IMG/VR virus record: IMGVR_UViG_3300029288_007089
Span: 1-64,000 of that record
Direction: 5' to 3' (one strand)
Length of the DNA: 64,000 nucleotides
Source: a virus
Taxonomy: Duplodnaviria; Caudoviricetes
In this document: positions 16,475-55,394 of the stretch, in pieces
How the letters are laid out: the number at the start of each line of letters is the position of its first letter
How positions within the stretch are numbered: the first letter of the stretch is position 1
Notes under the pieces: generated by a model
Seen by the model: only the letters and a program-made list of their open reading frames with translations
Database searches by the model: none
What the model was told of the DNA's origin: nothing
Made by a program: the position numbers and the translations under genes

Positions 16475-17631
16475 GCCGCTTTCCACCCTTCCAGCGCCCG
16501 CTCCGCAATCACGCGCAGCACGGGCATGGCGTATTTGCCGATCACGTAGTCGATGTCATAGTCGCGCGCGCCCTCAATCGCGCGCCGCCGGCGCTCCGGG
16601 TCGCCGCGCTCCAAATACGCCGCCTCCAGCGTCTCAACGATTGACGCAATACTGGGGCCAATCCAGAAGGCGTTTTGTTCGCTCCACTCCGGATCGCCCT
16701 CCACGAGCCAGCCGCTAAAGTTCAATTCTTTCTGCGCGCCGAAGTCGGTAGTGATGACGGGGCAGCCGGCGCGCTGGAATTCGAGCACCGGCAGGCCAAA
16801 GCCCTCACCCCGGCTCGGCGCAATGAGCACATCGCTCGCCTGCGCCAGCGTCGCCAGTTCGCGCGCCGGGATGCCGGTGCGGTACCGGTACTGGTCGGCA
16901 ATGCGCACGCGCTGTGGGTCGAGGCCGAGCGTCTTGATGATAACCGGGATGTTGACGCCGCCGAATACCGACGTGAGCAGGTTGCCCGTCTCAGACGTGT
17001 GCAGGTACAACATGGCGTCGGGGTACGTCTGCGCGAACATCTGCCACGCCACCAGCAACTCAGGGATGCCCTTCCTGCTTGGCACGCTGTCGTTGACGCC
17101 CACGAAGGACACGAGAAACACATCATCGGCCAGTCCCAGCGCCTTGCGTGCGGCGCGGCGGTCGCCGGGCTGCCACACCGCCGGGTCAACGCCGTGCGGC
17201 AGGTAGTAGCTCTCATGGCCGGCTACGCGCAGTTGCCGCTCGCCCCAACGTGTAAGCGCAATCGGCGCGCGGCACGCCGCCAGCGCGTTTGTCACCCGTT
17301 CCGGCACGGGCTGGCGATCAATGGGTGTGATGGGATACCAGGGCATGTGGCGCATGATTTCGGGGTTCAGTCCCCAGGCGTCGATGAGAGAGATTGCCGC
17401 GTCGGCGCGGAAGTGCGCCGCGTGCCCGTGAATAATGTCGCTGCCCAGTGGGTCGAGCGCCGGCGGGAGCACCTTGACGCCTTCGACCAGCGCCGGCAGG
17501 CTGCCTGCGCCGATGCCCAAATTGAACACGGCGACCTCGTGCCCCAGGCGCTTCAGGCGCGGCACGAAAAGGCGCGACTGGATGCTATAGCCGGACTGCG
17601 AGGTGAAGTTAGCCGCCCAGAGTATGCGCAA
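16471..17631 (-). CDS. Glycosyltransferase family 4
   Basis: HGVD, RKGIPELLVAW, DVLIAPSRGEGFGLPVLEFQRAGCPVITT. Confidence 0.92.
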   Translation of the reverse strand: MRILWAANFTSQSGYSIQSRLFVPRLKRLGHEVAVFNLGIGAGSLPALVEGVKVLPPALDPLGSDIIHGHAAHFRADAAISLIDAWGLNPEIMRHMPWYPITPIDRQPVPERVTNALAACRAPIALTRWGERQLRVAGHESYYLPHGVDPAVWQPGDRRAARKALGLADDVFLVSFVGVNDSVPSRKGIPELLVAWQMFAQTYPDAMLYLHTSETGNLLTSVFGGVNIPVIIKTLGLDPQRVRIADQYRYRTGIPARELATLAQASDVLIAPSRGEGFGLPVLEFQRAGCPVITTDFGAQKELNFSGWLVEGDPEWSEQNAFWIGPSIASIVETLEAAYLERGDPERRRRAIEGARDYDIDYVIGKYAMPVLRVIAERALEGWKAA

Positions 17632-17953
17632 TTGTGTCGCCTCCCAACGTCCAACCGCATTCGGGGCACCGGATGATGCCAGGGTTGTTGTGTTCGTCTA
17701 CGTTCGTGAGCGCCGCGCCGCAACGCGGGCAGGTATCGGAGATGGATAAATCGCCGGCTAGTGAACTTACCAAGCGCGGCGGCGACGGTACCCACGGCGG
17801 TGGCGGCATCATCCGTCCCTCCCGCCACGCCTCGCACGCCTTGACGACAATGTAGGACACGCTGCGGTCGTCACGCGCGGCTTCCGCTTCCAGCCACGCC
17901 AGCAGGTCGTCGGGGAAGGATATGCCTCTTGCGGTCGTTGTGCGTTTGCTCAT
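17609..17953 (-). CDS. Ribbon-helix-helix protein with C-terminal zinc ribbon
   Basis: RGISFPDDLLAWLEAEAARDDRSVSYIV; CPRC...CPEC. Confidence 0.7.
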   Translation of the reverse strand: MSKRTTTARGISFPDDLLAWLEAEAARDDRSVSYIVVKACEAWREGRMMPPPPWVPSPPRLVSSLAGDLSISDTCPRCGAALTNVDEHNNPGIIRCPECGWTLGGDTIAHTLGG

Positions 17954-18056
17954 TATAGACAAAGCGCCCACTGCACTTACTGCCGGCGGGCGCTCACGGG
18001 CGCACAGATGTTCAAGTCACAGTGTAGCACGGAATTGCAGCGCGTGCAAGTCACAG

Positions 18057-18232
18057 GTCACGGTGCGCTATTCTGAGATTCGCCCACTGCAACTGCAGCA
18101 CAGAACCACACCTCGGCGGGATGTCACAGTGCGCTATTCTGAGATTCGCCCACTGCAACTTTTGCGCAACATCCTCAGGCAGAAACACAGTGCAGGTCAC
18201 AGTGCGCTATTCTGAGATTCGCCCACTGCAAC
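18057..18232 (-). CRISPR. CRISPR array 1: three 37-nt repeats GTTGCAGTGGGCGAATCTCAGAATAGCGCACTGTGAC, spacers of 36 and 29 nt
   Basis: Repeats at 18196-18232, 18123-18159 and 18057-18093 (last has one mismatch); directly downstream of the RuvC nuclease and scaffold. Confidence 0.9.
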
Positions 18233-18380
18233 CCCAGTTGCAGTGCCGTGCAAAGCACGGAGTTCGGTCCAAAGCCGCCGCTAGTGGCGCGTTTTGACGC
18301 GCCAGGAACGCCGGGCGTCCCGTCTGGTCTTACGCGCGGCCCCAGGCCCAGGATGTGTGACTGCATCCTGTTCTCAAACC
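18233..18380 (-). ncRNA. Omega/tracr-like scaffold RNA fused to the first repeat
   Basis: Anti-repeat CACTGCAAC (plus 18237-18245) joined by TGGG to the repeat start GTTGCAGTG; stems covary with the second copy at 55211-55357. Confidence 0.8.
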
Positions 18381-19802
18381 TCATTTGGTTGTTAAAGTAC
18401 TGACGTTTGCGAAACTACGATGGAACTCCCGATAACCTCCCTCCCAGTCTGCCTTGCGGTACAGCGCGCGGCGCGCAATGTTCACCGCCGCGTTGTCGTC
18501 AGAGTGGCCGGCATAACCGCACGCGCCGCAAGTCACACTGCGGTCGTCGCGGTCCATGTCCGCGCCGCACTTGTGGCAGATCACCGAACTATAGGCGGCG
18601 AACACGCGCCGGAACGGGACGCCGGCCAGCTTGCACTTGTACTCCAGGATACGGTCGAGCTTGCGGAACCGGCTCACCACGCGCCCACCGCGTACCTGCA
18701 CGTTGAGGTCTTCGACCACGATGCCGGCCTGCGCATTCTGCGCCGCGCCGATCAGCGTATTGGCGAGCGTGTGCAGGATGTTGTCGTAGGCCTTCTGTTT
18801 GTAGTGACGCTTGGTGATCTTCTGCCCGTTGCGCGCCAGTTGTTCGCGTTCCTTGCCGTGCTTAAGCTGAAGCGCGCGTAAGTCATCGTCGAAGTGCCCC
18901 ATCTCCAGCACCGCGCCGGTCCCGTCCACGAGCGCATACGCGGCGGTGTACAGGATGCCCTTGTCGATGCCCAGGTACGCCGCCGGCTCGTAAACGTCGG
19001 GGCACTCAACCTCAAACGTGACGTGCAGCGCATAGCCGGCGTCGCGCTTCACCAGGAACGCCGCCTTCACGCGCCCCGCCCCGTCGCGGCTCGGCTGCAA
19101 GAATTTCGCCTCGTGCCAGCCGTTGCGCCCGATCTCCAACGGCACAAGAATTGCCGAGGCGCTATTGCTCTTGAATACCTCGCCGGTATCCAGGCGCACA
19201 AGATTATCTGCGCTTGCGCCGATGGGCCTTGTCAGTTCATGGCCCTTCGGTAGCAACCACAGCGCCGCGATAAGCTGGCGCTTTTGTGTGTTCCACAAAA
19301 GAGAGAAAAGGCGATTTCGTGCCGCACCATCTGCCCCGCAGAAATAGAGTGGCATGTATTGGCCGCGCATCCGCATGAGCATGAGGTTGCGCGCTTCGTT
19401 GTAGTCGGCTTCGTCGCCGCCTACAAGAACGAAGTCATCAAGCGCATTGTCCACCGCGTCGGGTGCGGGATCGCGCCCTACCGGAAAGCCGGTTGCGCCG
19501 GCCATGCCATCGAGCGCATAGTAAGATGCGAGGTTACCAGCCACGTCCACAAGTAGGCTGTCTTTGGCGCTGGTGTGTAGTGCGGCATTGGGGCGCGGCA
19601 GGAGCGACATTATGGCCTTGCCGTTGTACTTGTCGCGGTACATGCCCTGTTCGCGCAACAAGTCGTCATTGTCGCGCGCCCAGTCCAACATAGCTTGATA
19701 TGCCAGCGTGTATTCACGCAGTGCGTGATCCATCACCGCCGTTTTATGCGCGGAGGGATTGTGGACTTTGAAAATGCAGGTTAGGTGGATAGAATTGCTC
19801 AT
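18381..19802 (-). CDS. tnpB: Compact TnpB/Cas12f-like RNA-guided RuvC nuclease (473 aa), apparently intact
   Basis: RuvC-I YLGIDKG, RuvC-II IVVEDL, CHKC...CGAC zinc finger, RuvC-III HSDDNAAVNIA. Confidence 0.9.
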   Translation of the reverse strand: MSNSIHLTCIFKVHNPSAHKTAVMDHALREYTLAYQAMLDWARDNDDLLREQGMYRDKYNGKAIMSLLPRPNAALHTSAKDSLLVDVAGNLASYYALDGMAGATGFPVGRDPAPDAVDNALDDFVLVGGDEADYNEARNLMLMRMRGQYMPLYFCGADGAARNRLFSLLWNTQKRQLIAALWLLPKGHELTRPIGASADNLVRLDTGEVFKSNSASAILVPLEIGRNGWHEAKFLQPSRDGAGRVKAAFLVKRDAGYALHVTFEVECPDVYEPAAYLGIDKGILYTAAYALVDGTGAVLEMGHFDDDLRALQLKHGKEREQLARNGQKITKRHYKQKAYDNILHTLANTLIGAAQNAQAGIVVEDLNVQVRGGRVVSRFRKLDRILEYKCKLAGVPFRRVFAAYSSVICHKCGADMDRDDRSVTCGACGYAGHSDDNAAVNIARRALYRKADWEGGYREFHRSFANVSTLTTK

Positions 19803-50572: not shown

Positions 50573-50941
50573 ATGCTGGTGCGCAGCTACAAATACCGAC
50601 TGTATCCTACACCAACGCAAGTGCGCCGCTTGTTCGCAATGTTGCGCCTGTCGCGCCTACTCTACAACCACATGCTGGGCTATCGAGAGGAGGAGCACTC
50701 CTCATGGGCGCTAAGCCGCGTAAGACTTCATGATTTCATGAAGCAACGGTTTGCCCGAAAGCTCCGTTATTATGCGGAGAGTGCTATGGCGAACGCTAAG
50801 CTGTGTAAGACGCCGCAATTGCGCGGCGCGGTGGTTAGTTCGCAAATCTCTGCCAATCCGGAGCAGCTGGAGGTCTGCGACGCGACACACTCTGCCGGCA
50901 TCGAAGAAACGCCATATCTGGCGGAGACGGCGGCGCGATGA
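50573..50941 (+). pseudogene. tnpB: Internally deleted IS605-type tnpB (only the N-terminal HTH is recognisable)
   Basis: MLVRSYKYRLYPTPTQVRRL...SRLLYNHML; no RuvC motifs; another frame gives a C-terminus-like RGGALLMGAKPRKTS* ending at 50733. Confidence 0.75.
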
Positions 50942-50956
50942 CCGCCACCGGTGGCT

Positions 50957-51213
50957 GTTGCAACCGTCAACCTCCGGAGGTGGAGGGTGCTAGCACTATG
51001 GACGGTGGCTGGTCTGGGATGGCCGGCGTTGTTGCAACCGTCAACCTCCGGAGGTGGAGGGTGCTAGAGCCGTCAGACTTGCCGAGACGCGCCAAGACGA
51101 ACTTGTTGCAACCGTCAACCTCCGGAGGTGGAGGGTGCTAGAATGCCGCACCTCCGGCCACAGATACGCGGTAAGCGTTGCAACCGTCAACCTCCGGAGG
51201 TGGAGGGTGCTAG
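50957..51213 (+). CRISPR. CRISPR array 2: four identical 37-nt repeats GTTGCAACCGTCAACCTCCGGAGGTGGAGGGTGCTAG, spacers of 37, 37 and 35 nt
   Basis: Repeats at 50957-50993, 51031-51067, 51105-51141 and 51177-51213; orientation inferred from the upstream promoter. Confidence 0.93.
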
Positions 51214-51229
51214 ACACAAAACAGGAGGC

Positions 51230-51547
51230 ATGATGAACGCTCAGAATATTGCCAAGCAGTTGATGAAACACTGCGCTAATGAACCGACGGCAGAGGTTCA
51301 CTGGTACGCCGGCGGGACAGTTGACTACCGCTTCTGGACCGGAGAATATATGCTCACCGTATCGGTGTTCACCAATGAGGAGGACCGCAACGAGGCGGGT
51401 AGGTGGCCGAGCATGGGCGCCGTTGATGGCAGCCGGGGCCTGATAACCGACTACGAAGGTCCCGAATACAGCACCGACGCTGGGGCCGTGCGCGCGGCGA
51501 TTGCATTGATGGAAGAGATGCGACAGGACTATGGGGGTGAGGCATGA
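51230..51547 (+). CDS. Hypothetical protein
   Basis: CAGGAGG RBS, 105 aa. Confidence 0.65.
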   Translation: MMNAQNIAKQLMKHCANEPTAEVHWYAGGTVDYRFWTGEYMLTVSVFTNEEDRNEAGRWPSMGAVDGSRGLITDYEGPEYSTDAGAVRAAIALMEEMRQDYGGEA

Positions 51548-51990
51548 CTGATGACGAACTGCGCGCAAAAGCGCACAGGGTAGCCGAGGCGTTAGGCCTG
51601 GGGCGCGAACTGCCGCGCTACCACTGCGGGCGTTGCGGCAACAAGTGGCTGGTCGAGGACACGCCGCGCTGCCCGGAGTGCGACGCGCACGGCGACGGCG
51701 TGGCGCACATCGGCATGGAATTCAGCGCCATTGACCTGCTTACGGAGGCCGGCGTTGCGACACTGTTGGGAATATTGCGCAAATGGCATATCGGCGTTGT
51801 GCCCGAATGGACCGACGAATGGGGCAACGACTACATGACTTACACGGTTGTCGTTAACCGCAAAAAAGGCAAGCGAAGCTACGCTTCACGGCGTTTTTCG
51901 GGCCGCGCCAAAACCCGACCGGCGGCCCTGGTTCTAGCTGCGCACGCGGCACTGGAGGCGGGATGGTTGTGGGAGTTGGTGCATGAGTAA
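51544..51990 (+). CDS. Hypothetical Zn-ribbon protein; intact paralog of the gene disrupted at 55037-55465
   Basis: MTDDELRAK...CGRC...CPEC...ALVLAAHAALEAGWLWE. Confidence 0.7.
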   Translation: MTDDELRAKAHRVAEALGLGRELPRYHCGRCGNKWLVEDTPRCPECDAHGDGVAHIGMEFSAIDLLTEAGVATLLGILRKWHIGVVPEWTDEWGNDYMTYTVVVNRKKGKRSYASRRFSGRAKTRPAALVLAAHAALEAGWLWELVHE

Positions 51991-55036: not shown

Positions 55037-55210
55037 ATGAACGACGAAGAACTGCGCGCCGCCGGCGCGTGCGGCTATGCCGGCCATTCTGACGACAACG
55101 CGGCGGTGAACATTGCCCGCCGCGCGCTGTACCGCAAAGCGGATTGGCCCGGTGGCTATCGGGAGTTCCATCGTAGTTTCGCAAACGTCAGTACCTTTAC
55201 AACAGAATGA
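55037..55210 (+). pseudogene. tnpB: Chimeric ORF: 5' end of a phage gene (MNDEELRA) fused to the last ~48 codons of the 18-kb nuclease homolog
   Basis: GACGYAGHSDDNAAVNIARRALYRKADWPGGYREFHRSFANVSTFTTE vs ...KADWEGGYREFHRSFANVSTLTTK; homology starts at ~55063. Confidence 0.9.
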
Positions 55211-55394
55211 GGTTTGAGAACAGGGTGCAGTCACACACCCTGGGCCTGGGGCTGCGCGTAAGACCAGAGGGACGCCCGGCGTTCCTGGCGCGTCGAAACG
55301 CGCCACTAGCGGCGGCTTTGGGCTGAATCCCACGCTTTGCGTGGCACCGCAACGCAGGTTGCGGTGGGCGAATCTCAGAATAGGCCATTGTGAC
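55211..55394 (+). ncRNA. Second copy of the scaffold RNA ending in a single repeat variant
   Basis: Colinear with the reverse complement of 18196-18380; repeat GTTGCGGTGGGCGAATCTCAGAATAGGCCATTGTGAC at 55358-55394 (4 differences). Confidence 0.85.

Follow-up and report, generated by a model that had tools for sequence, protein, structure and literature searches.

In the omega-RNA of the ISDra2 TnpB nuclease, a 5' segment of the scaffold base-pairs with the nucleotides immediately preceding the guide; the resulting pseudoknot stacks on stem 1, and a natural tetraloop links the tracr-like and cr-like halves of the molecule (PMC10097598). An earlier note on the DNA studied here had stated that TnpB omega-RNAs and Cas12f guides use a pseudoknot adjacent to the guide, which agrees with that work (ISDra2, PMC10097598). 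TranC systems (Jin et al., Cell 2025, as cited in PMC13565253 and bioRxiv 10.64898/2026.03.27.714800) are TnpB-sized nucleases without adaptation genes, some of them phage-encoded. Their arrays are short, with a median of about 5 repeats (32-38 bp each), and the underlying concept is that the right-end RNA was split into a tracrRNA and a crRNA. Our analysis concerned a 64,000-nucleotide stretch of viral DNA (the window), which is part of a 72.6-kb IMG/VR provirus record with head-protein and integrase genes nearby. The region at 18 kb is very probably the tracrRNA-like scaffold of a prophage-borne miniature type V nuclease (Cas12f-like, TnpB-derived) with a guide-adjacent pseudoknot. Its fold is built on the same plan as those of known Cas12f and TnpB guide RNAs.

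Effector gene, scaffold and array at 18 kb

A nuclease ORF on the minus strand (19982-18381) specifies a RuvC/zinc-ribbon protein. Although this frame is open to 19982, all homologues align from Met61, and the likely gene is therefore 19802-18384, encoding 473 aa. A 176-nt RNA scaffold (minus strand, 18371-18196) begins 10 nt past the nuclease stop codon and runs into repeat 1 of an array of three 37-nt repeats with two or three unrelated spacers. The features of the locus are as follows.

18384-19802, minus strand: effector gene, 473-aa Cas12f/TnpB-like RuvC nuclease (stop codon TGA, 18381-18383)
18349-18370, minus strand: P1 hairpin, with a 7-bp stem (18364-18370 with 18349-18355) and an 8-nt loop, CAGUCACA (18356-18363)
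18356-18361, minus strand: 5' strand of the pseudoknot, P1-loop GUCACA, the short anti-repeat
18266-18348, minus strand: P2 long-range helix domain (about 18329-18348 with 18266-18284), enclosing a variable domain with P3 and P4
18305-18321, minus strand: P3 hairpin, inside the P2 variable domain
18285-18304, minus strand: P4 hairpin GGCGCGT-CAAA-ACGCGCC, inside P2 (loop CGAA in the 55-kb copy)
18261-18265, minus strand: GAAC linker, conserved and single-stranded, preceding P5
18246-18260, minus strand: P5 hairpin CCGUGC-UUU-GCACGG
18224-18245, minus strand: P6, the long repeat:anti-repeat stem (anti-repeat CACUGCAAC at 18237-18245, loop UGGG at 18233-18236, repeat-1 bases at 18224-18232)
18196-18232, minus strand: CRISPR repeat 1, 37 nt, called from periodicity
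18196-18201, minus strand: 3' strand of the pseudoknot, UGUGAC, the last six bases of repeat 1, directly 5' of the guide
18160-18195, minus strand: spacer 1
18123-18159, minus strand: repeat 2
18094-18122, minus strand: spacer 2
18057-18093, minus strand: repeat 3, with one mismatch, CACCGTGAC

Homologues of the effector numbered 73, each of 440-510 aa and with identity down to 33%, and across them the RuvC D/E/D residues and the four cysteines of the zinc finger (CxxC..CxxC) were invariant; these motifs are intact in the window effector. The Pfam model Cas12f1-like_TNB matched the effector at 1e-17, and sequence likeness to Cas12f, TnpB, and CasX was confined to its C-terminal RuvC/TNB half (E ~1e-18; PDB profile: Cas12f 1e-18). 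The best-scoring NCBIfam model was guided_TnpB, at 91 bits and below its cut-off of 100, and the scores for Cas12f2 (74 bits vs a cut-off of 450) and IS200_TnpB (35 bits vs 425) were likewise below threshold. PADLOC Cas12f models gave about 60 bits, on the RuvC half of the effector only. An AlphaFold (AF2) model of the effector, built from 45 sequences and with a pLDDT of 86, had AsCas12f chains as its closest PDB folds (E 1e-17, TM 0.55-0.60, about 490 columns, 15% identity), followed in the ranking by TnpB and other Cas12f structures. The model has the layout of the Cas12f fold, namely a WED/REC N-terminal lobe and a RuvC domain with an inserted zinc-ribbon (TNB), at a length within the 400-700 aa range, and the nearest ESM-Atlas clusters were mostly viral. 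No Y1 transposase (Y1_Tnp) was found in the record or among the called genes of homologous loci, no cas1, cas2, or cas4 was found in the record, and a search of IMG/VR for relatives of the effector by peptide patterns returned none. Just downstream of the array, a 120-aa ORF (17609-17971, minus strand) gives a weak score, below threshold (21 bits), against one half of the TNB zinc-ribbon model and has no PHROG match.

Within the scaffold, the P1 loop (CAGTCACA in DNA letters) includes GTCACA, which is the exact complement, over all six bases, of the TGTGAC that ends the repeat, just as the earlier note had read it; TGTGAC repeat ends adjoin the spacer in both the 18-kb and the 55-kb copies. 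In P6, nine base pairs join the anti-repeat CACUGCAAC to the first nine bases of repeat 1, so that the scaffold is fused to that repeat. An Rfam scan of the whole window at gathering thresholds matched no family, and the scaffold folded as a single sequence gave z = -2.7 relative to shuffles. No protospacer was found for any spacer: spacers 1 and 2 had no match as exact 24-26-mers in IMG/VR, and a comparison of all spacers and guides with the window and the fetched loci returned self matches and chance matches of 10-16 nt only, apart from the match between the 55-kb guide and a paralogous gene described below.

Covariation of the fold and of the pseudoknot

A second scaffold copy in the window allowed the fold to be examined by comparison:

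55220-55394, plus strand: second scaffold copy, 88% identity (P1 at 55221-55242, GUCACA at 55230-55235)
55358-55394, plus strand: single repeat of the second copy (UGUGAC end at 55389-55394)

The structure used was obtained with RNAalifold from both copies and the scaffold of a 95%-identical relative (L057), with the pseudoknot added. This fold consists of P1, a long-range P2 that encloses P3 and P4, and then P5 and P6. It includes all four stems that the earlier note had quoted, together with P2, a helix that starts immediately after P1 and was missing from that description. The quoted differences between the 18-kb copy (minus strand) and the 55-kb copy (plus strand) were recovered in P1 (CAGGATG/CATCCTG vs CAGGGTG/CACCCTG), P5 (CCGTGC-TTT-GCACGG vs CCACGC-TTT-GCGTGG), P6 (CACTGCAAC/GTTGCAGTG vs CACCGCAAC/GTTGCGGTG), and P4, where the second copy has the CGAA loop. 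In total, 21 of 176 columns differ between the copies, owing to 20 substitutions and one indel. Ten of the substitutions fall in paired columns. Four base pairs are altered on both sides in a compensatory way (two in P5, and one each in P1 and P6), two further changes affect one side only and preserve a G·U pair, and no pair is broken. When 20 substitutions were placed at random 100,000 times, at least four compensatory pairs arose in a fraction of 1.1e-4, and zero broken pairs was never reached; the compensatory fold that had been claimed from the two copies is upheld.

To widen the comparison, about 55 homologous loci were fetched (44 from metagenomes, 4 from MAGs, and 8 more through exact protein look-ups). 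In most of them, the same P1 hairpin comes after the nuclease gene, and beyond it lie a structured region and a CRISPR array, which in most loci holds 2-5 or more repeats with unrelated spacers. The repeats of the family are 36-37 nt long (28 nt in a distant clade), and mostly start with GTTGCA and end in ..TGTGAC or a variant. A P1-motif scan of IMG/VR gave six loci, which were left out; only one of them (L067) had a model match, a weak one of 66 nt. Four contigs bear MAG labels (Promethearchaeota, Altiarchaeales, Planctomycetaceae, Ardenticatenales), from which no host was assigned, as these contigs are short and possibly binned phage DNA. Among them, homologous contigs of 2-8 kb stand under archaeal MAGs (L053 and L056; Promethearchaeota, Altiarchaeales), and these host labels may be binning artefacts. 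Other family members lie in phage-like contexts with ERF, DnaB, and SSB genes (L059).

A MAFFT alignment (A3) of 29 scaffold instances from 23 loci was scored on P1, P2, P5, and the pseudoknot. In this alignment, 90.3% of the cells were paired, vs 70.9% after shuffling and 29-40% when the 3' partners were slid by 1-3 columns. The covariation score was 0.571 vs 0.209, double changes occurred in 26 of the 32 pairs, and none of 500 shuffles matched any of these measures; since the rows are related, the shuffle counts overstate independence, which the slid-partner control and the pair-type number address only partly. Taken by helix, the paired cells and the pairs with double changes were 94% and 6 of 7 for P1 (29 sequences), 82% and 11 of 13 for P2, and 94% and 5 of 6 for P5. 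P2 contains a nearly invariant U·G as well as several G·U pairs, and the pairing therefore occurs in RNA of the sense strand. A covariance model (R1) built on the nested helices P1, P2, and P5 detected only the two copies in the window, at 157 bits (18 kb) and 152 bits (55 kb), scored a further copy at 68 kb of the record with 86 bits, and recovered scaffolds outside the seed (L019, L029, L026, L055, L017, L056, and the distant clade). Within this subclade, a single compensatory change supports P6; in clades elsewhere in the family, the anti-repeat pairs with another part of the repeat, forming a P6-equivalent stem in another register.

The pseudoknot is identical in both window copies and is therefore testable only in the wider family. 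Its complete pairing in A3 (100%, 29/29) is circular, because the 3' ends of the instances had been chosen by complementarity to the loop. In an independent test, the repeat ends were defined solely by the periodicity of the array, and the loop hexamers were located only by way of the P1 stem, at the start coordinate of the model. The complement of the loop hexamer lay at most 3 nt from the called repeat end in 26 of the 28 array-bearing loci, the two exceptions being L063 (4 nt, a chance extension of the repeat call) and L019 (five of six pairs). After shuffling of the loops among loci, the matches averaged 12.5 with a maximum of 19, and none of 5000 shuffles reached 26. The loop hexamers were of nine types (GUCACA, GUUACA, GUCUCA, GCCUCA, GUUUCA, GUCGUA, GUCGUG, GUCACG, and GUCUCC), and loop and repeat end are partnered as GUUACA/UGUAAC, GUCUCA/UGAGAC, GCCUCA/UGAGGC, GUUUCA/UGAAAC, GUCGUA/UACGAC, and GUCGUG/CACGAC. 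The short repeat:anti-repeat helix, in which the P1 loop pairs with the last six repeat bases over 6 bp, hence covaries across loci. Its positions other than Watson-Crick are mostly sense-strand G·U, which again indicates pairing in RNA of that strand. Covariation in a wider alignment, the check named in the earlier note, bears out both the fold and the loop-to-repeat-end pseudoknot.

These data also bear on whether the 3' end of the repeat might pair with its own 5' end (GUUGCAGUG with CACUGUGAC) as an ordinary hairpin, with no P1-loop pseudoknot. The ends of the window repeat can form nine pairs, including two G·U, and the first and last six repeat bases are fully paired in 13 of 26 loci. 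However, the GUUGCA start is fixed while the repeat end varies, so that such a hairpin does not covary and retains 2-5 of 6 pairs where the end differs, whereas the P1 loop tracks each change of the repeat end. Moreover, compact scaffold copies that lack the 5' end of the repeat still keep the 3' strand, and we regard the repeat hairpin as very unlikely. A second alternative would place the complementarity in the DNA, as terminal inverted repeats of a mobile module, or in a protein-coding or terminator segment. Complementary hexamers do lie near both ends of a block-duplicated unit, and a 69-aa ORF overlaps 18175-18384 on the minus strand. Inverted repeats in DNA would nevertheless not tolerate the departures from Watson-Crick pairing in the pseudoknot, most of which are G·U on one strand, or the invariant U·G of P2; the 5' hexamer is inside a hairpin loop rather than terminal, and the 3' hexamer is carried by every CRISPR repeat. 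A coding role is countered by stops in all frames of the 55-kb scaffold copy and by substitutions that are compensatory, not codon-like. With these points against it, the second alternative is scarcely credible.

Guide modules without their own nuclease gene

Upstream of the 55-kb scaffold lies a truncated gene:

55037-55210, plus strand: nuclease-gene remnant, a 57-aa ORF with the ribosome-binding site GAGGAGG

This ORF joins the opening of a paralogue of the gene at 51544-51990, its start codon and first 8 codons, to the last 49 nuclease codons, which encode one half of the zinc finger and the third of the RuvC motifs. The module replaces the middle of that paralogue: eight codons stand before it, and the last ~20 codons resume 2 nt after UGUGAC. 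As the 3' part of the interrupted paralogue follows the repeat, the would-be guide is flanking gene sequence, and it matches the paralogue at 51940-51961 in 20 of 22 bases. Relative to the 18-kb gene, the remnant shows 10 synonymous and 3 non-synonymous codon changes, and both lineages therefore diverged under protein and RNA constraint, probably before the truncation. Most of the divergence probably arose while the 55-kb copy served an intact nuclease gene, possibly in another phage. The compensatory changes are a mark of past selection and not of present function of the 55-kb copy, despite the absence of broken pairs. The earlier suggestion that both copies were under selection as functional RNA stands for the lineages while they were diverging. 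Directly upstream of the intact paralogue at 51544-51990 lies an unrelated locus (50573-51214, plus strand), comprising the N-terminal ~40 codons of a typical TnpB (MLVRSYKYRLYPT..), ~250 nt, and four 37-nt repeats that start GTTGCAAC and have a palindromic core; the scaffold model R1 gives no match there.

A third copy lies in the record outside the window:

68456-68565 of the record (L005:1454-1563): compact scaffold copy of 110 nt

It has a further compensatory change in P1, a shortened P2 domain, a P5 that is again compensated, and a CUUCCCC-AAAA-GGGGAG hairpin in place of P6, and its UGUGAU end still pairs through a G·U. A readable promoter (TTGTCG-17-TATACT) precedes it. The copy is flanked (L005:~1355-1400 and ~1565-1600) by imperfect direct copies of ~40 nt containing a terminator-like hairpin (GCCCC..GGGGCTTGCTT), and its would-be guide is similar, though not identical, to the upstream hairpin copy. 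In DNA run X2, one loose end contains a W68-like variable region. The modules at 55 kb and 68 kb have the same design as the 18-kb scaffold: neither has its own nuclease gene, and the would-be guide is the DNA that follows, as with omega-RNA.

Similar arrangements were present in relatives. Compact fused forms of 109-152 nt occur in L059, L060, L013 (minus strand), and L055, and those of L060 surround a 64%-identical effector with no CRISPR array:

L060 2750-2863, plus strand: compact scaffold
L060 4404-4512, plus strand: compact scaffold
L060 5824-5939, minus strand: compact scaffold

The loop and 3' end of these three pair as GUUUCA/UGAAAC (twice) and GUCUCA/UGGGAC, and L060 represents an omega-RNA-like state within the same effector family. 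In one clade (L016:4776-4908, L017:2355-2484, L051:468-598), the array adjoins the gene directly and the scaffold lies beyond the array, fused to the 3' half of the repeat only and to a final guide. L057 (2249-2655) has two tandem scaffold units, a junction seen again in an independent run (X17); the first unit has a single repeat and differs in its variable domain, and what would be its guide consists of the final ~50 nt of the nuclease gene preceding the second unit. In L059 (11398-11537), compared with the empty allele of L058 (1960-1990), a compact scaffold of 140 nt is inserted exactly from P1 to the end of the pseudoknot, so that the boundaries of the insertion are those of the RNA; the site falls within the final codons of the nuclease gene and is 20 nt upstream from the resident scaffold. 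Simple tandem duplication was considered for the doubled scaffolds of L057 and L059 and rejected, as the upstream units have variable domains and boundaries of their own.

Such forms raise the question of whether the scaffold is the omega-RNA (right-end RNA) of a TnpB transposon, its "repeat" being the right end and the copies being ends left by transposition or homing. This would accommodate the 55-kb and 68-kb copies, with one or no repeat and a guide from flanking DNA, as well as the array-less compact scaffolds of relatives (three in L060; the L059 copy L059a, L013 on the minus strand, and L055), the precise L059/L058 insertion, and the rank of guided_TnpB as best-scoring NCBIfam model. 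That score is nevertheless under its cut-off, a Y1 transposase is missing from the record and from the called genes of homologous loci, and most loci have arrays of unrelated spacers. The left boundaries of the duplicated modules also vary, taking in 170 nt of the gene at 55 kb, 50 nt in L057, and none in L059. We consider the transposon-end reading unlikely, and it is a question of classification that overlaps with the tracrRNA-like scaffold we favor, the fold itself being undisputed.

On a tentative reading, viewed with considerable doubt, this one phage would keep its guide RNA in three states that all serve one nuclease gene: the array-fused scaffold at 18 kb, the single-repeat scaffold in a disrupted gene at 55 kb, and the stand-alone 110-nt form at 68 kb with a promoter of its own. 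The fixed-guide modules would be active and self-propagating, in that each guide would match the uninterrupted allele of its insertion site in related phages, and cleavage followed by repair would copy the module (homing). The copies described above, among them the exact insertion in L059 relative to L058, allow such homing spread of guide-only modules without proving it. If true, it would provide a living example of the split of an omega-RNA into tracrRNA and crRNA, and of guide-only mobile elements that rely on a resident nuclease.

Proposed function and comparison with known systems

The scaffold would be transcribed in the same direction as the nuclease gene, and the RNA may come from the nuclease-gene transcript or from a promoter just 5' of P1. 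In L063 and in the 68-kb copy, sigma-70-like boxes can be read immediately upstream of P1; scans for consensus promoters and terminators near the 18-kb and 55-kb scaffolds found none adjoining either. One study contributed two metatranscriptome runs in which the contigs on a 551-nt stretch are confined to 18196-18361, that is, scaffold and repeat 1, while in DNA runs the nuclease gene on this stretch was covered too; no absence can be read from the parts left uncovered in the RNA runs X15 and X19. In P5, the RNA-library contigs have the two compensatory changes that also mark the 55-kb copy. As a sign of scaffold expression, they give a weak hint, since they may contain DNA, their ends may reflect strain variation, and they indicate neither the strand nor the ends of the RNA.

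Two contacts tie the scaffold to the repeat: the P1-loop GUCACA, the short anti-repeat, pairs with UGUGAC, and CACUGCAAC, the long anti-repeat, pairs with the start of the repeat. In the proposed mechanism, the scaffold would bind the nuclease and offer spacer 1 as the guide for DNA cleavage. Only UGGG separates the anti-repeat from repeat 1, and therefore the scaffold, repeat 1, and spacer 1 together can act as a natural single-guide RNA. This same arrangement is a point against the favored explanation, because the anti-repeats are occupied in cis and the use of the later spacers (2 and 3) needs another route; repeats 2 and 3 may pair with the scaffold in trans or through long-range pairing in cis, replacing repeat 1.

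These results provide a secondary structure, backed by covariation and including the pseudoknot, for the guide RNA of a Cas12f-like family associated with phages; the family lies outside Rfam and below all curated Cas12f and TnpB protein cut-offs. A natural deletion series (176, 140, and ~110 nt) keeps P1, P2, P5, a short P6 hairpin, and the pseudoknot strand, and so points to the parts that can be dispensed with; this would help in deriving a compact editor from the 473-aa nuclease. Of greater interest within the finding are the fused states and those that lack a nuclease gene. The coexistence of fused, single-repeat, and array states, in one genome and across the family, bears on the origin of type V CRISPR from TnpB by splitting of the right-end RNA, and also on the purpose that such systems serve in phages.

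Among known systems, Cas12f1 (AsCas12f, PDB 8J12 and 8J3R; SpCas12f1; Un1Cas12f1) resembles the present one in its small RuvC and zinc-ribbon effector, AsCas12f being the nearest solved fold, in a scaffold of ~150-200 nt encoded beside the array, and in 37-nt repeats starting with GTTGCA. The short repeat:anti-repeat pseudoknot next to the guide and the long repeat:anti-repeat stem are shared with the RNAs of Cas12f1, Cas12b, and TnpB. Unlike Cas12f1, the effector here is only ~15% identical, is detectable by sequence in its RuvC/TNB half alone, and misses the curated cut-offs; the system is phage-borne, lacks cas1, cas2, and cas4, and has its scaffold fused to repeat 1 through a 4-nt loop; and the long anti-repeat of this subclade pairs with the 5' end of the repeat, not with its pseudoknot-adjacent part. 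The ISDra2 omega-RNA is likewise one continuous RNA from at or near the 3' end of the nuclease gene, with the UGGG loop here as the counterpart of its natural tetraloop, and a guide from flanking DNA is a likeness limited to the 55-kb and 68-kb copies. In contrast to ISDra2 TnpB, there is no TnpA and there are no recognisable transposon ends here, true arrays with different spacers are present at 18 kb and in most relatives, the scaffold starts past the stop codon with no gene overlap, and the N-terminal half of the effector is larger (473 vs 408 aa). LaTranC, the sole TranC sequence compared, was a remote match (E 8e-5 on the TNB domain, TM 0.40). The family of the window effector has both unsplit (fused, compact) and split (array) RNA states, a coexistence in keeping with the TranC concept, and the phage system would fit the idea of a TnpB-to-Cas12 intermediate.
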